IMG/VR virus record: IMGVR_UViG_2585427790_000004
Location: 1-7,570 of that record
Origin: a virus
Taxonomy: Duplodnaviria > Heunggongvirae > Uroviricota > Caudoviricetes
Length of the DNA stretch: 7,570 nt
Direction: 5' to 3' (one strand)
The notes under the pieces are model-generated. The model saw nothing but the letters and a program-made list of their open reading frames with translations, had not been told where the DNA came from and did no database searches. Position numbers and translations under genes: made by a program. Positions 1 to 7,570 of this stretch are shown here, piece by piece (position 1 is the stretch's first letter; the number at the start of each line of letters is the position of its first letter).

Positions 1-93
1 GCACTGGCGCTCGGGCGTCGTGCGATTGGCGTTGAACTGGAGACCGGACGTTTTGAGCAGACAGTCAGGGAAGTTCAGGATTTAATCGTTTGA
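1..93 (+). CDS. 3' end of an ORF entering from upstream (5' partial); C-terminus resembles a beta-class DNA N6-adenine/N4-cytosine methyltransferase
   Basis: Frame 1 is open from position 1 to TGA at 91-93 and translates to ALALGRRAIGVELETGRFEQTVREVQDLIV*. The A-x-x-G-R-R-x-I-G-x-E pattern resembles the segment after the FxGxG AdoMet motif near the C-terminus of beta-class methyltransferases. Only 30 residues are visible, so the family call is tentative. Confidence 0.4.
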   Translation, partial: ALALGRRAIGVELETGRFEQTVREVQDLIV

Positions 94-104
94 AACGGAT
101 GATA

Positions 105-133
105 TTGAAGAATTAATTACGCGTCGTTATTAT
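105..133 (+). promoter_or_regulatory. sigma70-like promoter for the tRNA cluster
   Basis: TTGAAG at 105-110, a 17-bp spacer, then TATTAT at 128-133; the first tRNA begins at 143, about 9 nt downstream. Confidence 0.5.
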
Positions 134-142
134 GCGGCTCCC

Positions 143-218
143 GGCCCTTTAGCTCAGTGGTGAGAGCGAGCGACTCATAATCGCCAGGTCGCTGGTTCAA
201 ATCCAGCAAGGGCCACCA
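143..218 (+). tRNA. ileZ: tRNA with CAU anticodon, most likely tRNA-Ile2 (lysidine type) rather than tRNA-Met
   Basis: Cloverleaf read by hand: acceptor GGCCCTT (143-149) pairs with AAGGGCC (208-214), discriminator A, encoded CCA at 216-218; D stem GCTC/GAGC; anticodon loop CTCATAA; T loop TTCAAAT. Closely resembles E. coli ileX as I recall it. The symbol follows the 933W naming from memory. Confidence 0.85.
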
Positions 219-225
219 TCACATA

Positions 226-302
226 CCGCCATTAGCTCATCAGGATAGAGCGCCAGCCTTCGAAGCTGGTTGCGCGGGGTTCGAGTCCTCGATGGCGGTC
301 CA
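226..302 (+). tRNA. argN: tRNA-Arg (anticodon UCG, reads CGA/CGG)
   Basis: Acceptor CCGCCAT (226-232) pairs with ATGGCGG (292-298), discriminator T, encoded CCA at 300-302; D stem GCTC/GAGC; anticodon stem CCAGC/GCTGG with loop CTTCGAA (anticodon TCG at 260-262); T loop TTCGAGT. Unusual C1:G72 first pair. Starts 7 nt after the previous tRNA. Confidence 0.8.
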
Positions 303-315
303 TTATCTGTACCCT

Positions 316-392
316 GCGTTGTTAGCTCAGCCGGACAGAGCAATTGCCTTCTAAGCAATCGGTCACTGGTTCGAATCCAGTACAACGCGCCA
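316..392 (+). tRNA. argO: tRNA-Arg (anticodon UCU, reads AGA/AGG)
   Basis: Acceptor GCGTTGT (316-322) pairs with ACAACGC (382-388), discriminator G, CCA at 390-392; anticodon stem ATTGC/GCAAT with loop CTTCTAA (anticodon TCT at 350-352); T loop TTCGAAT. Resembles E. coli argU. Confidence 0.88.
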
Positions 393-406
393 CACTTATT
401 TTCCCT

Positions 407-432
407 GGCTCGCTTTTGCGGGCCTTTTTTTT
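407..432 (+). terminator. rho-independent terminator after the tRNA cluster
   Basis: Stem GGCTCGC (407-413) / GCGGGCC (418-424) with one G-U pair, loop TTTT, followed by a run of 8 T (425-432). Confidence 0.7.
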
Positions 433-627
433 AAATGTCTCACAATTCAGACGGTTGACTGTTGTCTGGTTGGCGGGGAGTTTGTTAAAAGAAACTGGCA
501 TGGTGAATCCCCCTGTGCGGAGGGGCAATCAGCGAGTAGGTATATGGGATAATCGCGGATTCAGGTGCTGGTACTGAATTCACCGGGAGGCACCCGGCAC
601 CATGCAATGGCACATAGCGCCACTCTC

Positions 628-662
628 CAGCCCCTCTCCGGAGGGGCTGTTTATATTGATTT
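628..662 (+). terminator. rho-independent terminator-like hairpin
   Basis: Perfect 9-bp stem CAGCCCCTC (628-636) / GAGGGGCTG (641-649), loop TCCG, followed by the T-rich tract TTTATATTGATTTT. It lies just before the convergent end of the minus-strand ORF at 684. Confidence 0.5.
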
Positions 663-683
663 TGTCAGATGTGAGTAAACTGC

Positions 684-1019
684 TTATGGACTTTGTTGTT
701 TTAGCCCATAAGGACATATTTGCAGAGTGCAACGGTTATTAAAGCATTCATTCAATACGTTATCTGTATTTGTAGGGCATTCCTGGCTGTTTTTGATTAA
801 ATTCCAGAATGTTTTATTGAATGGTACTACGTTGTAAATGGTTACAGGTAGCACTTTGTTATTGAGCATGATGCCTGTGTGAGTCAGTGTAAATATACTT
901 TCAGGAGGTAAGAAAGCATCCGATTGATACCAGATTATTAATTTTATTTTACTCCATATGACTGAAAAAGATATTCCGCATGATGGCTGGATAACTGTAT
1001 CAATCACAATCCACTTCAT
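684..1019 (-). CDS. hypothetical 111-aa protein in an AT-rich island, no family recognised
   Basis: Open frame of 111 codons in very AT-rich DNA, where stop codons are frequent. Good Shine-Dalgarno AAGGAA 6 nt upstream of the ATG (complement of 1017-1019). A candidate sigma70 promoter lies upstream on the minus strand (TTTACA / TATACT, complement of about 1060-1086). The protein ([22 protein letters not shown]...) matches nothing I know. Confidence 0.4.
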
Positions 1020-1279
1020 TTAGTTTCCTTGTTTATGCCTTGCTGGTGATGTTCTGAAAAGTATAAATGATATTTTTGATTGTAAACCATAGAGCAGAAT
1101 TATTTTTCTGATGTTGTTTATTGTTTATTTAAATGCAGGGTGGTTTATATCTCGTCTTGTAGTTTATCCATGCATATCTGCTTGATGATGAGGTTTTTAT
1201 TTAAGGTATGGTTTTGTGTTTTTTCTGTATTACATGTCAGGTATTTTAAAGAATCATTTTTCAGATGGTGGAAAGAACC

Positions 1280-3136
1280 ATGGCATTTAAACACTATGAT
1301 GTTGTCAGGGCGGCGTCGCCGTCAGATCTTGCGGAAAAGCTGACACATAAACTGAAAGAGGGCTGGCAGCCGTTTGGTAGTCCGGTGGCCATAACCCCTT
1401 ATACCCTGATGCAGGCGATTGCAGCAGAAGGTGATGTGGTGGTCAGTGGTGCAACTGAGCCGGATTGGTACTACGTCATCGTACTGGCCGGGCAGTCCAA
1501 TGCCATGGCTTACGGTGAAGGGCTTCCGCTGCCGGATTCATACGATGCGCCCCATCCGCGCATTAAGCAACTGGCCCGTCGTAACACAGTGACTCCCGGT
1601 GGTGAAGTATGCGTATTTAACGACATCATTCCTGCTGACCATTGTCTGCATGATGTTCAGGATATGAGTACGATTAACCATCCCCGGGCTGACCTGAGCA
1701 AAGGGCAGTACGGCTGTGTCGGACAGGGCTTACATATTGCCAAAAAACTGCTTCCGTATATCCCGAATAACGCGGGGATCCTGCTGGTACCATGCTGTCG
1801 TGGTGGTTCGGCATTCACCCAGGGCGCGGAGGGGACATTCAGTGCGGACACGGGGGCCAGCCAGGATTCGGCACGCTGGGGTGTGGGTAAACCGTTATAT
1901 CAGGACCTGATCGCACGCACCAAAGCGGCATTACAGAAGAACCCGAAAAATGTGTTGCTGGCGGTGTGCTGGATGCAGGGCGAATTTGACATGAGCGCTG
2001 CCACCTACGCACAGCAACCGGACCTGTTCACGGCCATGCTGAAGCAGTTCCGTACTGACCTTTCCGGATTTAACGCGCAGTGCCATGGCGGCAGTGCTGC
2101 AGTTGTACCGTGGATTTGTGGCGACACGACGTATTACTGGAAAAACACATACGGCACACAGTATGACTCCGTCTACGGCGCGTACAAAAACAGGGAGAGC
2201 GACAACGTTTTCTTTGTGCCGTTCATGACCGACGGTAACGGCAACAACACGCCCACCAACTTACCGGCAGAAGACCCGGATATTGCTGATGCAGGTTATT
2301 ACGGCGCGCAATCCCGTAGTAATGGTAATTGGGTATCGTCAAATCGTCCGACACATTTCAGTTCATGGGCGCGCAGGGGCATTATTTCGGATCGCCTGGC
2401 AACCGCTATTCTGAACGCAGTTGGTCGAACCAGCGCCTTCATCAGCGGTACCGCACCGGAGATTAAACCCTCGCCCGGCGGCGACACGCCATCGGGGCCG
2501 TCTGATGGTGACACATCCGTTCGTACAGTCTCCCTGCTGCCGACAGCCGGAGAGGCTGCTGCGCAGGGCTGGACCATCACCGGCGGCAGTGTTGCGCTGG
2601 AAGATGGTGTGTTTAAGGTTACCAAGCAGAGCAATAAAACCTGGTCCCTGATGCATCCGGTGGATGACGCAGTCTCCCTGCTGACACGGGGTGGCAGACT
2701 GAGCTGTAAGTTTCGACTGTCAGGCGCACTGATCAACAACCAGTTCGGTCTGGGAATTTATCTGTATACCGATGTAGCGTTACCTGACGTCGTGGCGATG
2801 ACCGGGACTGGTAACCCGTTCCTGATGTCGTTCTTCACCCAGACCACAGACGGCAAACTGAATCTGATGCATCACAGGAAAGCAGGAAACACAAAGTTGG
2901 GCGAGTTCGGGAATTACAGTAACGACTGGCAGACGCTGGAGCTGGTGTTCACCGCCGGCAGTGCCACGGTTACTCCGAAACTGAATGGAGTGGCTGGCCC
3001 GGCATTCCAGGTCATAAAAGACAGTCTGACACTGGGGCTGAATGCGCTGACGCTGACGGATATTACCAAAAATGCAGCGTATGGCGTTGAGATAGAAAGT
3101 CTGGTGCTGGAGATAAATGCACCGGCATCATCATAA
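1280..3136 (+). CDS. nanS-p: prophage sialate 9-O-acetylesterase (NanS-p-like, SASA/DUF303 family)
   Basis: Long ORF (1265..3136 in the ORF track). Contains the GQSN block (VIVLAGQSNAMAYGEG) typical of SGNH-type sialate O-acetylesterases, and sits between the tRNAs and the holin as nanS-p does in Stx phages. Start placed at ATG 1280 (MAFKHYDVV...) because GGTGGAAAG precedes it; the in-frame ATG at 1265 has no Shine-Dalgarno. Confidence 0.85.
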   Translation: MAFKHYDVVRAASPSDLAEKLTHKLKEGWQPFGSPVAITPYTLMQAIAAEGDVVVSGATEPDWYYVIVLAGQSNAMAYGEGLPLPDSYDAPHPRIKQLARRNTVTPGGEVCVFNDIIPADHCLHDVQDMSTINHPRADLSKGQYGCVGQGLHIAKKLLPYIPNNAGILLVPCCRGGSAFTQGAEGTFSADTGASQDSARWGVGKPLYQDLIARTKAALQKNPKNVLLAVCWMQGEFDMSAATYAQQPDLFTAMLKQFRTDLSGFNAQCHGGSAAVVPWICGDTTYYWKNTYGTQYDSVYGAYKNRESDNVFFVPFMTDGNGNNTPTNLPAEDPDIADAGYYGAQSRSNGNWVSSNRPTHFSSWARRGIISDRLATAILNAVGRTSAFISGTAPEIKPSPGGDTPSGPSDGDTSVRTVSLLPTAGEAAAQGWTITGGSVALEDGVFKVTKQSNKTWSLMHPVDDAVSLLTRGGRLSCKFRLSGALINNQFGLGIYLYTDVALPDVVAMTGTGNPFLMSFFTQTTDGKLNLMHHRKAGNTKLGEFGNYSNDWQTLELVFTAGSATVTPKLNGVAGPAFQVIKDSLTLGLNALTLTDITKNAAYGVEIESLVLEINAPASS

Positions 3137-3220
3137 AAAGTGAGCCAGTCAAATGGAAGGTATCGTTAAACTCACCGGTAGTGTCAGTGGGTCGTCTGAG
3201 ATGCCTGCATGAGTTATCAG

Positions 3221-3252
3221 AGCCATCAGTACTTAACTGGTGGCTTTTTTTA
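3221..3252 (+). terminator. rho-independent terminator between nanS-p and the holin
   Basis: Stem AGCCATCAG (3221-3229) / CTGGTGGCT (3237-3245) with one G-U pair, loop TACTTAA, followed by six T and TAT. Confidence 0.6.
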
Positions 3253-3286
3253 TTGTTGTCAGCTTCCGGATAACGGGAGACGGGGT

Positions 3287-3502
3287 ATGTACCAGATGGA
3301 AAAAATCACAACAGGTGTGTCATACACCACGTCAGCGGTGGGAACGGGCTACTGGTTCCTGCAGTTGCTGGACAGGGTTTCCCCGTCTCAGTGGGCGGCA
3401 ATAGGCGTGCTGGGGAGTCTGCTGTTTGGGTTGCTGACATATCTGACTAACCTGTATTTCAAAATCAGAGAGGACCGTCGTAAGGCGGCGCGGGGAGAGT
3501 AA
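3287..3502 (+). CDS. S: class II holin (phage 21 S-like, 71 aa)
   Basis: [71 protein letters not shown]: two transmembrane segments and a charged C-terminus, near-identical in layout to the S21 holin as recalled. GGGAGA Shine-Dalgarno 6 nt upstream. Met1 and Met4 give a dual-start motif. The track ORF from 3209 is an unsupported N-terminal extension. Confidence 0.85.
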
Positions 3503-3506
3503 AGCG

Positions 3507-3851
3507 ATGAAGAAAAAATACGAACTGGTTGTTAAAGGGATAAATAATTACCCGAATAAGATTACTGTTACTGTGGCACTGGAAATTGGTGGGTATCCGT
3601 CACTGTTGTTGCCAGATGTGGCGATTAGTCTTGACCGTACTGAAGATGCCACGCTGGAGTTTTACGAAGCTGAGGCGAAAAAGCAGGCGAAGCAGTTTTT
3701 CATGGATGTTGCTGCCGGGTTATGTGAAGGGGATGGTCCGTTGCCGGAAAAGCGCCCCGTAATTTTAGAGGCGCAGGATGTGTTGATAACCTACAGAGGA
3801 AAACTACCGGGAATAATTACTGGTTCTCTGAAGACTCCACCGCTGGCCTGA
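3507..3851 (+). CDS. 114-aa protein of unknown function, probably DUF1327 (YdfR-like)
   Basis: Begins 5 nt after the holin stop and lies between holin and endolysin, the position of ydfR in the Qin prophage as I recall. The family assignment is from memory of similar proteins, not a search. Confidence 0.65.
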   Translation: MKKKYELVVKGINNYPNKITVTVALEIGGYPSLLLPDVAISLDRTEDATLEFYEAEAKKQAKQFFMDVAAGLCEGDGPLPEKRPVILEAQDVLITYRGKLPGIITGSLKTPPLA

Positions 3852-3901
3852 AGACTTAACATATCCAGGGATTTGAAATCGATAAACCCTGATAAATATC
3901 C

Positions 3902-4435
3902 ATGAACACCAAAATCAAATACGGCCTGTCGGCTGCCGTTCTGGCGCTGATTGCCGCAGGTGCGCCTGCGCCTGAAATCCTCGACCAGTTTCTGGATGAA
4001 AAGGAAGGTAACCACACCACGGCATACCGTGATGGCGCGGGTATCTGGACCATCTGCCGCGGTGCCATCCTGGTGGATGGCAAACCTGTCGTTCCGGGCA
4101 TGAAGTTGTCGAAGGAAAAATGCGACCGGGTTAACGCCATTGAGCGTGATAAGGCGCTGGCATGGGTGGAGAAAAACATCAGAGTGCCATTGAGTGAACC
4201 CCAGAAAGCGGGGATCGCGTCATTCTGTCCGTACAACATTGGCCCCGGTAAGTGTTTTCCGTCGACGTTTTATAAACGAATTAATGCAGGTGATCGCAGG
4301 GGAGCGTGTGAGGCGATTCGCTGGTGGATTAAGGACGGTGGCAGAGACTGCCGTATTCGCTCAAATAACTGTTACGGTCAGGTATCCCGTCGTGACCAGG
4401 AGAGCGCGCTGGCGTGCTGGGGAATCGACAGATAA
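3902..4435 (+). CDS. R: SAR endolysin (phage lysozyme, GH24 / T4-lysozyme fold)
   Basis: N-terminal Gly/Ala-rich weakly hydrophobic segment (MNTKIKYGLSAAVLALIAAGA) typical of signal-anchor-release endolysins, followed by the catalytic E-x8-D-x5-T spacing (EGNHTTAYRDGAGIWT). 177 aa. Confidence 0.9.
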   Translation: MNTKIKYGLSAAVLALIAAGAPAPEILDQFLDEKEGNHTTAYRDGAGIWTICRGAILVDGKPVVPGMKLSKEKCDRVNAIERDKALAWVEKNIRVPLSEPQKAGIASFCPYNIGPGKCFPSTFYKRINAGDRRGACEAIRWWIKDGGRDCRIRSNNCYGQVSRRDQESALACWGIDR

Positions 4436-4525
4436 GCAGAATATTTTGCTAATCAATGACGTTGGCCAAGGCGGACGGATAACACGAAATCCTGCGAACT
4501 GGCAAAATGTAAGTGAATAAAAGTA

Positions 4526-4558
4526 AAAACCCCGTTTGTTGGCTGCAAGCGGGGTTTT
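4526..4558. terminator. bidirectional terminator-like hairpin in the R-Rz gap
   Basis: 9-bp stem AAAACCCCG (4526-4534) / CGGGGTTTT (4550-4558) around a 15-nt loop; T-rich sequence follows on both strands. The large loop makes strength uncertain. Confidence 0.35.
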
Positions 4559-4633
4559 GTGTTTCCTGACTCTGGAAAAGTCAAAGGAGAAAGTGTGTTT
4601 GATTTTAGCAAACTGATTCGGGAGATTCGAGTG

Positions 4634-4732
4634 ATGGCTGGAAAATTATCCACCTGGAAGTTCATTCTTATCTGGCTGGTGTTTGTGATTATGGCCTCCG
4701 GTTATTTCATCGGTCAGATACGCTGGTGGTGA
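4634..4732 (+). CDS. possible 32-aa single-pass membrane peptide (alternative GTG start at 4595 gives 45 aa)
   Basis: Not in the ORF track because it is too short. ATG 4634 to TGA 4730-4732 encodes MAGKLSTWKFILIWLVFVIMASGYFIGQIRWW with a hydrophobic core. GGGAGA lies 8 nt upstream of the ATG, and AGGAG lies 5 nt upstream of the GTG at 4595. Its stop is 1 nt from the Rz start (TGAAATG). Confidence 0.35.
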   Translation: MAGKLSTWKFILIWLVFVIMASGYFIGQIRWW

Positions 4733-4733
4733 A

Positions 4734-5201
4734 ATGAACCGCGTACTGTGCGTGGTCATCATTGCCCTGCTGGTGGCCTGTGGTGCGCTTAGTCTGGGGC
4801 TGAATCATTACCGTGATAACGCCATAACCTACAAAGAGCAGCGCGATAAAAAAGTCAGTGAGCTGGAGCAGGCAAATGCAACCATTACTGATATGCAGCA
4901 GCGCCAGCGTGATGTTGCTGCACTTGATGCCAGATACTCGAGGGAATTAGCCGATGCGAGAGCTGAAAATGAAACTCTGCGCGCTGACGTTGCCGCTGGT
5001 CGTAAGCGCCTGCGGATCAACGCCACCTGCCCCGGTACCGTGCGTGAAGCCCCCACCACCTCCGGCGTGGATAATGCAACCGGCCCCCGACTGGCAGACA
5101 CCGCTGAACGGGATTATTTCACTCTCAGAGAGCGGTTGATGCTGACGCAGAAGCAGCTGGAAGTGGCGCAGGAATATATCCGCACTCAGTGCCTGAAATA
5201 A
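4734..5201 (+). CDS. Rz: Rz inner-membrane spanin (i-spanin)
   Basis: N-terminal transmembrane segment (MNRVLCVVIIALLVACGALSL) followed by a charged, coiled-coil-like periplasmic domain; position after the endolysin; 155 aa. Confidence 0.9.
   Translation: MNRVLCVVIIALLVACGALSLGLNHYRDNAITYKEQRDKKVSELEQANATITDMQQRQRDVAALDARYSRELADARAENETLRADVAAGRKRLRINATCPGTVREAPTTSGVDNATGPRLADTAERDYFTLRERLMLTQKQLEVAQEYIRTQCLK
4954..5139 (+). CDS. Rz1: Rz1 outer-membrane lipoprotein spanin (o-spanin), embedded in Rz in the +1 frame
   Basis: MRELKMKLCALTLPLVVSACGST...: lipobox LVVSAC and a proline-rich mature region (CVKPPPPPAWIMQPAPDWQTPLNGII) very like lambda Rz1 as recalled; wholly inside Rz. Confidence 0.85.
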   Translation: MRELKMKLCALTLPLVVSACGSTPPAPVPCVKPPPPPAWIMQPAPDWQTPLNGIISLSESG

Positions 5202-5229
5202 GTTTTGCTGATGCGCGGTATTGTCGCCG

Positions 5230-5294
5230 TATCCCCGCATTAACAGAGACCGCAGCCCGACCGGGAGACTCCTCTGCGCGAGTGTGCGGGGATA
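5230..5294. repeat. long imperfect palindrome at the Rz / tail-fibre junction
   Basis: TATCCCCGCA (5230-5239) is the exact reverse complement of TGCGGGGATA (5285-5294); inside are nested pairs CAGAG/CTCTG and CCCG/CGGG. No T-run follows. Confidence 0.5.
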
Positions 5295-5295
5295 A

Positions 5296-6742
5296 TCAAA
5301 AACGATACACACCGGGGTTTCTGCAGCAAAAACCTCTGAAACAAATGCAAAGACTTCAGCAGATAATGCTGCTTCCTCTAAGGCGGCAGCCGCATCGTCA
5401 GCCAGTTCAGCGGCGTCATCGGCATCATCTGCGTCTGCTTCAAAAGATGAGGCGACCAGACAAGCGTCAGCAGCGAAAGGTAGTGCCACGACAGCAACAA
5501 TGAAAGCATCAGAGGCAGCTGGTAGTGTGACGGCGGCAGCTCAGAGCAAAAGTACGGCGGAATCCGCGGCAACGCGCGCCGAGACAGCAGCAAAACGGGC
5601 AGAGGATATTGCATCCGCCGTGGCGCTGGAGGATGCGAGCACGACGAAAAAGGGGATAGTACAGCTCAGCAGTGCGACCAACAGCACTTCCGAGTCACTG
5701 GCGGCAACGCCAAAAGCGGTTAAGGCGGTAATGGGTGAAACGAACAAGAAAGCGCCCTTAAATAGTCCTGCACTGACCGGAACGCCAACAACACCAACTG
5801 CGCGACAGGGAACGAATAATACCCAAATCGCAAGCACGGCTTATGTTATGGCTGCGATCGCTGCCCTCGTGGACTCGTCGCCTGACGCACTGAATACGCT
5901 GAACGAGCTGGCTGCGGCGTTGGGCAACGACCCGAATTTTGCGACCACCATGACTAACGCGCTTGCGGGTAAGCAACCGAAAGATGCCACCCTGACGGCG
6001 CTGGCCGGGCTTGCTACTGCGGCAGACAGGTTTCCGTATTTTACGGGGAATGATGTTGCCAGTCTGGCAACCCTGACAAAAGTTGGGCGGGATATTCTTG
6101 CGAAATCGACCGTTGCCGCCGTTATCGAATACCTCGGTTTACGAGAACTCGGCACAAGCGGGGAGAAAATACCGTTACTCAGTACAGCGAATACCTGGAC
6201 TAATCGACAAACATTCAGCGGTGGCCTTTCTGGTGAACTATCCGGCAATGCTTCTACAGCTGCAAAATTAAAAACTGCCAGGAAAATAAGCAATGTGGCT
6301 TTTGATGGTTCCTCCGATATCACATTAAAAGCAAGTCATGTTGGTGCGTTTGCCTTAGGGAAAACAGGAAGCACCGTTGCGAATGATAAAGCAGTTGGAT
6401 GGAACTGGAGTAGCGGAGCCTATAACGCAACTATTAGTGGTGCATCAACGTTAATTATTCATTTTTATATGGGAGAAGGAAGTTGTCCTGCAGTTCAGTT
6501 TCGGATTAATTATAAAAATGGCGGTATTTTTTATCGTTCAGCCCGTGATGGTTATGGTTTTGAAGCCGACTGGTCCGAATTTTACACCACCACCAGAAAA
6601 CCTTCAGCAGGAGATGTTGGTGCACTGCCGTTATCTGGTGGTCAACTGAATGGTGCACTGGGTATCGGAACATCCAGTGCTCTTGGCGGTAATTCGATTG
6701 TATTGGGTGATAATGACACGGGCTTTAAACAAAATGGCGATG
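5296..6742 (+). pseudogene. side tail fibre (Stf-like) gene fragment, missing its 5' end and cut at its 3' end by the IS
   Basis: The frame of track ORF 5500..6903 is open back to the TAA at 5293-5295 with no start codon before 5500, and already encodes Ala/Ser-rich fibre repeats (ETNAKTSADNAASSKAAAASS...). It continues with GIVQLSSATNSTSESLAATPKAVKAV and ...LGDNDTGFKQNGD, typical of lambdoid Stf and T4 gp37-type fibres. After GD the frame runs into IS sequence at 6743. Confidence 0.8.
6122..6147. other. gix/hix-like DNA-invertase crossover site inside the tail-fibre gene
   Basis: TTATCGAATACC TC GGTTTACGAGAA: two 12-bp inverted half-sites around a 2-bp core; its reverse complement matches the Mu gixL site as I recall it (TTCCTGTAAACCGAGGTTTTGGATAA) at 22 of 26 positions, with the central AAACCGAGGTTT identical. 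Confidence 0.5.
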
Positions 6743-7570
6743 TGAACCGCCCCGGGTTTCCTGGAGAGTGTTTTATCTGTGAACTCAGGCTGCCAGATCA
6801 TCGTTTCCGATGGAAGCATAATAAGCTTTTTCTGCTTCTGCCGGAGGAGTATGGCCCAGCCTTTCCAGCAATCGTCGATTGTTATACCAGTCCACCCACG
6901 TGAGTGTGGCCAGTTCCACTTCTGCACGGTTTTTCCAGCTCTTACGGTGTATTACCTCCGCTTTGTAAAGACCATTGATGCTCTCCGCCATCGCGTTGTC
7001 ATACGAGTCGCCTGTACTTCCTGTTGATGCCAGTAATCCGGCTTCCTTAAGCCGCTGTGTGTAGGCCAGCGATACATACTGAGAACCTTTATCACTGTGA
7101 TGGACCGTGCCGGACGGTCGACGGGCCCATAACGCCTGCTCCAGTGCATCCAGCACGAATGTCGTTTCCATGGACGATGAGACCCGCCACCCCACGATGT
7201 ATCCGGCAAACACATCAATGATGAACGCCACATAGACGAAGCCCCGCCATGTGCTGACGTAAGTAAAATCAGCCACCCACAGCTGGTCAGGTCGTTCTGC
7301 CACGAACTGACGGTTTACGCGGTCGCCTGCGACAACGGCTTTCCGGCTGATGGTCGTACGGACCTTTTTACCCCGGAGAACACCGGCAAGTCCCATAACC
7401 GCCATGAGACGTGCCACAGTGCATCTGGCCACTCTGATACCTTCCCGTAACAACTGACGCCAGACTTTACGCACACCGTATACCTTGTGATTTTCATCGT
7501 ATACGCGCTGTATCTCTTTCTTCAGCCAGTCATCGCGCTGCGCACGGGCACTGCGTTTATCCGGATGATG
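6743..7570 (-). mobile_element. IS3-family insertion sequence (IS629-like), 3' part; continues beyond the window
   Basis: The tail-fibre frame breaks at 6743, where a terminus beginning TGAACCGCCCCGGG starts (IS3-family ends are 5'-TG...CA-3'). The transposase OrfB stop lies about 40 bp inside that end. Confidence 0.8.
6785..7570 (-). CDS. IS3-family transposase OrfB (DDE integrase domain), N-terminus beyond the window
   Basis: Track ORF 6785..7474 plus an open in-frame extension to 7570 (...HHPDKRSARAQRDDWLKKEIQRVYDENHKVYGV RKVWRQLL...). DDE-type blocks are present: LWVADFTY, HHSDKGSQY, YDNAMAESINGLYKAE. Matches IS629/IS1203-type OrfB from memory. Confidence 0.9.
   Translation of the reverse strand, partial: HHPDKRSARAQRDDWLKKEIQRVYDENHKVYGVRKVWRQLLREGIRVARCTVARLMAVMGLAGVLRGKKVRTTISRKAVVAGDRVNRQFVAERPDQLWVADFTYVSTWRGFVYVAFIIDVFAGYIVGWRVSSSMETTFVLDALEQALWARRPSGTVHHSDKGSQYVSLAYTQRLKEAGLLASTGSTGDSYDNAMAESINGLYKAEVIHRKSWKNRAEVELATLTWVDWYNNRRLLERLGHTPPAEAEKAYYASIGNDDLAA

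Follow-up and report, generated by a model that had tools for sequence, protein, structure and literature searches.

Two questions are raised by the short segment in front of a phage holin gene: whether its hairpin ends transcription and so shields the lysis genes behind it, and whether the two start codons with which the holin gene opens act as a holin/antiholin device. The segment lies in a stretch of phage DNA of 7,570 nt, referred to in the following as the window, which represents a lambdoid late region; the prophage is defective and of the Stx-phage type. The window shares 100% identity over positions 1-5320 with a prophage of E. coli EC21Z-078, and Stx2-converting phage 86 matches 3100-3520 at 99.8% identity, hairpin and holin included. 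Similarity to intact prophages ends near position 5320, and none of the complete E. coli genomes in the collection covered at least 80% of the window. The head and tail genes are deleted, with a tail-fiber ORF and a transposase gene standing in their place. The genes of the window are arranged as follows:

143-392: three tRNA genes
469-658, plus strand: STnc100 sRNA (Rfam, 133 bits against a gathering score of 47), ending in a terminator at 628-649
684-1019, minus strand: iraM-like ORF of 111 aa (RefSeq “anti-adapter protein IraM” in the identical prophage)
1265-3136, plus strand: nanS-p, prophage sialate O-acetylesterase (Pfam DUF1737, SASA and DUF6645, the NanS-p architecture)
3287-3502, plus strand: holin gene S
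3507-3851, plus strand: DUF1327/YdfR gene between S and R (PF07041, E 2e-45)
3902-4435, plus strand: endolysin R, R21-like (PF00959; matches to 3hde/3hdf, E 8e-16, and to RrrD 4zpu)
4734-5201, plus strand: Rz spanin with embedded Rz1 at 4954-5139 (PF03245 and ORF list)
5500-6903: tail-fiber ORF (Phage_fiber_2 and gp37_C), directly after Rz
6785-7474, minus strand: IS3-family transposase orfB, overlapped by the 3' end of the tail-fiber ORF

The iraM-like ORF, for which no Pfam match was found, occupies the position that stx holds in Stx phages. STnc100 has been related to the prophage sRNA PasD, which is typically located upstream of a sialate esterase gene (2026 preprint). RefSeq lists nanS-p of the identical prophage as “SASA family carbohydrate esterase” with a start at window position 1280, and the Rz/Rz1 arrangement is that of Stx2 phage 86.

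The first-pass annotation had placed an intrinsic terminator with a 9-bp stem and a T6 tract between nanS-p and S, and the elements of this interval are the following:

3137-3218, plus strand: 3' untranslated spacer of 82 nt, from the nanS-p stop codon to the terminator
3219-3247, plus strand: terminator hairpin of 12 bp, with a 9-bp core (3222-3230/3236-3244) and the loop at 3231-3235
3245-3251, plus strand: T7 tract (U-tract), followed by ATTGTTGT; tail score 5.5 with a maximum of about 7.1

The hairpin reads AGAGCCATCAGT-ACTTA-ACTGGTGGCTTT with a 5-nt loop, and the first three T of the T7 run are able to pair with AGA. In its 12-bp form it folds with -17.0 kcal/mol (z = -4.86) and an equally stable structure was obtained in 0 of 200 shuffles, while the 9-bp core GCCAUCAGU/ACUGGUGGC, which includes one G.U pair, accounts for -12.9 kcal/mol. 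It starts 82 nt 3' of the nanS-p stop codon, and the terminator ends 35 nt 5' of the holin ATG at 3287. Terminator prediction, which had been suggested as a check, agreed with this assignment: a consensus terminator scan lists the 3219-3247 hairpin, and a score of the d'Aubenton-Carafa type (d; with modern energies) amounts to 24-37, varying with the definition of the stem, as compared to 46 at 407-424 after the tRNA cluster and 30 at 628-649 after STnc100. When the whole window was shuffled with dinucleotides preserved and both strands were scored, one of 100 shuffles contained a site with d≥24, and the terminator signal is far beyond chance. Positions 3219-3251 are thus predicted to form a genuine, strong Rho-independent terminator that closes the nanS-p block. 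The terminator of the first-pass annotation is borne out by folding energy, z-score, shuffles and the compensatory conservation described below, as is its 9-bp stem, which corresponds to the core and can be extended to 12 bp; the T tract needs correction, as the run at 3245-3251 comprises seven T. A bidirectional terminator was considered as well and rejected, since no T tract follows the stem on the reverse strand.

Related loci were collected from IMG/VR and species genomes with the holin gene as an anchor, which yielded 27 distinct sequences for the segment that precedes the 5'UTR of the holin gene. The hairpin position is kept in these 27 distinct homologs, and their stems differ in sequence (for example GCCATCAGT/ACTGGTGGC, GACCATCGG/CCGGTGGTC, GGGGTGTCGG/CTGATGCCCC and GCCGTCAGTG/CACTGGCGGC). 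Upstream of these variants there are at least four different nanS-p C-termini and, in some cases, non-nanS contexts. Homology of other Stx phages to the window, as determined by megablast, breaks off at window positions 3217, 3239 and 3293, which places the hairpin on a mosaic joint. The hairpin might therefore be a functionless relic that hitchhikes at a recombination joint between modules, as its coincidence with the breakpoints at 3217 and 3239 and the close relationship of the sampled loci to one another would allow. However, standard pairs make up 95.3% of the alignment cells, as compared to 32-73% in a control in which the 3' partner was slid by one to three columns, and five of the 11 stem pairs were altered on both sides in compensatory fashion among the 27 homologs. 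In addition, distant S21-family loci carry unrelated hairpin and T-tract elements at the same position. A mere relic is already disfavored by these data and must be considered very improbable.

In a survey of Enterobacterales species genomes, 45% of 58 distinct regions upstream of S21-family holin genes contained a terminator that scored d≥10 and lay within 150 nt, in comparison to 1% of the control regions, which were windows on the same strand. A terminator followed by a holin gene is a recurrent module boundary, and the terminator of the window marks the one at which the mosaics of Stx phages recombine.

Length variants with T7 or T6 were observed among otherwise identical loci (e.g., L015), and there is another allele group in which the T tract has decayed to CTCTTGTTG and the hairpin is still there. 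The hairpin is retained together with a poor T tract (CTCTTGTTG, d<0) in 19 of 91 related loci, one such weak variant being GGGGCTGTCGG...CCCCTCTTGTTG, and efficient termination is therefore not universal. Besides its predicted role in termination, the hairpin may serve RNA stability. In a stricter form of this idea, selection would have favored the hairpin mainly for a function at the RNA 3' end and not for insulating the lysis genes; it would either stabilize the nanS-p mRNA or form the end of an Hfq-binding sRNA derived from the 3'UTR. Such a role would agree with the conservation of the hairpin at loci with a poor T tract and with the combination of a stem-loop and U7, which is typical of Hfq-binding 3' ends. 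Moreover, two Hfq-bound sRNAs, PasA and PasC, are known to be encoded in the slot between nanS-p and the holin gene of some other prophages (PMC8550237 Table S6; bioRxiv 10.64898/2026.05.13.724894). PasA and PasC (Pearl Mizrahi, 2021; Zhu, Shabalina & Storz, 2026 preprint) resemble the window hairpin in their slot and in their stem-loop and U-tract end, but they come from the other strand and are found in intergenic regions of a longer type, with about 450 nt (e.g., in Stx1_699). Northern-probe sequences of PasA, PasC, PasD and PasB were absent from both strands of the window, with up to six edits allowed for PasA and PasC, and the hairpin was consequently rejected as the terminator of a described Pas sRNA. 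Further points against a 3'-end element are that Rfam returned nothing at E≤1 within 3137-3300 and that the 82-nt spacer is unconserved across nanS-p alleles. A plus-strand, 3'UTR-derived sRNA ending at the hairpin has no support, and selection mainly for a 3'-end role appears unlikely, even though such a role and that of an insulator are not mutually exclusive.

The long type of nanS-p/holin intergenic region, with PasC-like and PasA elements, was found in Stx1_699 (L082, positions 2056-2504) and in an E. albertii prophage (L166). The PasA probe has an exact match at 2215-2239 of the Stx1_699 locus, with the sRNA on the opposite strand, and this phage possesses a separate plus-strand terminator 46 nt before the holin start.

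The terminator closes a block of genes that simpler relatives of the prophage do not have. The segment 383-3295 is absent from S21-type prophages sharing the tRNA cluster and the holin, in which the holin is reached within about 380 nt of the tRNA cluster, and it can therefore be regarded as an insertion with its own terminator, as expected of a moron, an inserted unit of promoter, gene and terminator. The terminator at 3219-3251 would close an inserted moron block of the STnc100 sRNA, the iraM-like gene and nanS-p. A crude scan of the plus strand upstream of nanS-p (1020-1264) yielded no sigma-70-like promoter with at least 9 of 12 matching positions.

The first-pass annotation had argued that lysis-gene expression would depend on transcription modified by Q. 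Q and pR' are located outside of the window, and the identical prophage of EC21Z-078 supplies the missing context: a Q gene (PF03589) ends 1.7 kb before the window start and is followed by a hairpin, CCCGCCGCCTGGCGGG plus T6, that resembles tR'. Of the elements of a Q-dependent late operon, Q and a tR'-like terminator are hence present upstream on the same strand in this prophage. From Q to Rz, the consensus scan detected 12 terminator-like sites, as compared to 6.8±2.7 in shuffles, and nine of the 12 are on the plus strand. In Stx phages, stx, nanS-p and S-R-Rz are part of one Q-dependent late transcript (PMC12078605; PMC8065619; PMC10462455). Expression of the late region was reported to be Q-dependent in 933W (PMC12078605; PMC8065619), and mitomycin C raised nanS-p mRNA by 1-2.4 log (PMC10462455). 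The literature search returned no paper characterizing the nanS-p/S terminator.

These observations suggest a model in which the lysis cassette (S, ydfR, R and Rz/Rz1) would be insulated by the terminator from any transcription that is not modified by Q. RNA polymerase modified by Q and coming from pR' would read through 3219-3251 and the other plus-strand terminators, and the holin would be made only after induction, from an mRNA with the two-start layout of S21. Termination in vivo, read-through by Q and the use of both starts are what we infer from the signals in the DNA, and there are good grounds, short of a demonstration, to assume that lysis-gene expression needs a terminator-resistant, Q-modified polymerase. 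Weighing against the model are the poor T tracts of some related loci, the promoter scan, which points to no source of Q-independent transcripts to be stopped, the position of Q and pR' outside of the window, the defective state of the prophage and, for the dual start, the extension free of Lys/Arg and the alleles that lost Met1 (see below). We assign a probability of roughly three in four to this model as a whole.

The second question concerns the holin itself, whose start region comprises the following elements:

3263-3279, plus strand: stem-loop CUUCCG-GAUAA-CGGGAG (-8.7 kcal/mol), present in the MFE folds and burying SD1
3275-3279, plus strand: SD1, GGGAG, 7 nt before AUG1 (duplex with the 16S 3' end, -7.4 kcal/mol)
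3282-3286, plus strand: SD2, GGGGU, unpaired, 9 nt before AUG4 (duplex -6.4 kcal/mol)
3287-3502, plus strand: holin S of 71 aa from Met1, class II, phage-21 S family
3296-3502, plus strand: holin S of 68 aa from Met4, aligned with Met4 of S21 and the sole start in Met1-less alleles

With 112.5 bits (E 9e-33; Pfam gathering score 26), the holin ORF falls into PF04971, “Bacteriophage P21 holin S.” It aligns over its full length with members of the phage 21 S (pinholin) family, and databases list it as “lysis protein S” or “class II holin family protein.” In line with the assignment to class II, it seems to be paired with a SAR-type (R21-like) endolysin: the translation of R contains an N-terminal Ala/Gly-rich hydrophobic segment and the residues E35-x8-D44-x5-T50. 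The structures 3hde/3hdf, which are named only “Lysozyme” in the search output, are taken here to be R21 of phage 21. The spacer between R and Rz (4436-4733) contains a 14-bp hairpin, AAAACCCCG...CGGGGTTTT, at 4526-4558 of the plus strand with a poor T tract (d<0), and RefSeq has a small hypothetical ORF in the identical prophage that corresponds to window positions 4595-4732. In Stx2 phage 86, this spacer is the site of the ant moron.

A longer holin ORF of 97 aa can be read from an ATG at 3209 (3209-3502, plus strand). It was rejected, as the terminator lies within it, no SD precedes it and its upstream part is unconserved in other alleles. Database entries for holins of 96-97 aa (“...RRGMYQM...”) are probably start mis-calls, and those that start at ATG 3209 and run through the terminator can be corrected in annotation.

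The two ATGs at 3287-3289 and 3296-3298 are in frame and open the reading frame M-Y-Q-M-E-K..., with the stop codon at 3500-3502. When aligned with S21, the holin has Met1 and Met4 exactly where the proven starts of S21 are located, and for S21 Barenboim et al. in 1999 reportedly described a dual start giving S21-71 and S21-68. Both methionines are invariant in an alignment of 18 family sequences from Escherichia, Citrobacter, Salmonella, Enterobacter, Cronobacter, Dickeya, Kosakonia and Erwinia, and M-x-x-M is widespread across 120 family clusters. SD1 forms the 3' arm of the stem-loop at 3263-3279, and an equivalent stem-loop exists in all 5'UTR types of the family, with stems as different as UCCG/CGGA, CCCGC/GCGAGG, CCCCG/CGGAGG and CUUCC/GGAGG. 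Pairing was computed as a probability for each sequence, as MAFFT does not keep the variable loops in register for a covariation count on a single structure, and the mean of 0.78 for the SD1 zone, as compared to 0.59 with the 5' part shuffled, discriminates modestly; SD1 is paired at a probability of about 0.75. The sequestered SD1 would serve AUG1 and the free SD2 would serve AUG4, so that two holin products of 71 and 68 residues would likely result; their production is plausible because each AUG has its SD and the layout is of the S21 type. The Met-Tyr-Gln-Met start of the first-pass annotation thus holds up as a two-start arrangement homologous to the dual start of S21, complete with tandem SDs and stem-loop. 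No paper was found that covers both 933W and the dual start.

Whether the two starts also set a holin/antiholin ratio, as had been proposed, is a separate matter. The antiholin behavior of lambda S107 and of S21-71 has been attributed to an extra positively charged residue (PMC9636201; bioRxiv 10.1101/2024.01.23.576932), and a working definition of dual-start holins calls for a basic residue located between the two starts (PMC9671378). The extension of the window holin, Met-Tyr-Gln, contains neither Lys nor Arg. Among the 120 clusters, extensions with a basic residue are represented by MYRM (20), MKSM (18), MLRM (6), MKM (4), MMKM (3), MHRM (2) and MKFM (1), and those without by MYQM (33), MDQM (4), MNQM (3), MFQM (2) and MHQM (1). 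A distant branch of the family has M-R-M, with AGG or CGA as the Arg codon. The window allele MYQM belongs to the non-basic branch, which many of the listed Stx phages carry, Min27 and phi24B among them. In the Stx1a phage Stx1_699 and in the E. albertii prophage mentioned above, codon 1 is ATA and Met1 is lost; the gene is annotated with 68 aa, and the SD is shifted to 8-10 nt before the remaining AUG. The IMG/VR loci L153-L156 encode a recombinant holin, in which the MYQM start and its own 5'UTR are joined to an S21-type body with the mosaic joint within codons 5-8.

The two ATGs may consequently not constitute a holin/antiholin device in this allele, with one start dominating or with the 71- and 68-residue forms being equivalent, as no positive charge is added. 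The credit given to the extra basic residue in S107 and S21-71 points in this direction, and so does the presence of Lys or Arg in the extension of a sizeable share of the clusters and its absence from the branch of the window. Residue 2 is hypervariable (Y/D/N/H/F), and the Met1-less alleles of Stx1a phages have relocated their SD to serve Met4. Against this stands the retention of ATG1 in nearly all alleles of the MYQM-type branch, together with the tandem SDs and stem-loop typical of S21, and the three extra residues could still slow the exit of TMD1. We regard the absence of a device as a serious possibility with slightly less than even odds. Antiholin activity of the 71-aa form is in any case doubtful: one defining feature of the classical holin/antiholin function is missing, and this function is evidently dispensable in nature. 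As for the proposed ratio, dual-start homology and tandem SDs speak for it and the non-basic extension and the Met1-less alleles speak against it, and the function is not established here. On a broader scale, it can tentatively be proposed, with the odds rather against it, that the Stx-phage branch of the S21 family lost the basic residue, that its long product is no charge-retarded antiholin, and that lysis and toxin release are timed without the classical mechanism. If so, timing would be set, for example, by the terminator and the SD stem-loop alone, or the extension would act in another way. The charge-less dual start of Stx phages thereby poses a question on the timing of lysis and toxin release.

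In sum, a terminator followed by an S21-family holin gene with an SD stem-loop and two starts is ordinary, already known architecture of lambdoid late regions. The first-pass annotation had labeled the locus as expected biology and was largely right; the only mildly unexpected point is the dual-start extension without a basic residue in the holin branch of the window. The locus means little beyond its correct annotation, as the cassette is wired like other lambdoid late regions, with terminator insulation, an S21-type holin and, as we infer, Q dependence.

The locus can be compared with three further known systems. With phage 21, it shares a PF04971 holin (75-80% identity to the MKSM-type, i.e., phage 21-type, members P0067 and P0083), the identical positions of Met1 and Met4, the tandem SDs, of which the upstream one is part of a stem-loop, and a downstream endolysin that is R21-like. 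Differences are the extension, which is Met-Lys-Ser in S21 and has no basic residue in the window, the DUF1327 gene between S and R, and the upstream region, as S of phage 21 follows soon after the tRNA cluster whereas the window holin is preceded by nanS-p and the terminator. In lambda, Q acts at pR' to render transcription resistant to tR' and further terminators, and the choice between S105 and S107 is set by the sdi stem-loop over the upstream SD. The window resembles this late operon in that the lysis genes are located downstream of terminators that only Q-modified polymerase would pass and in that a stem-loop covers the upstream SD. However, lambda S is a class I holin with three TMDs and unrelated in sequence, and it is not directly preceded by a moron that carries its own terminator. 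The gene order agrees with that of Stx phages, such as 933W and Stx2 phage 86, whose late region runs Q-pR'-tR'-tRNAs-stx-nanS-p-S-R-Rz. Unlike these phages, the window prophage has no stx, carries the STnc100 sRNA and the iraM-like gene in its place and is truncated after Rz.
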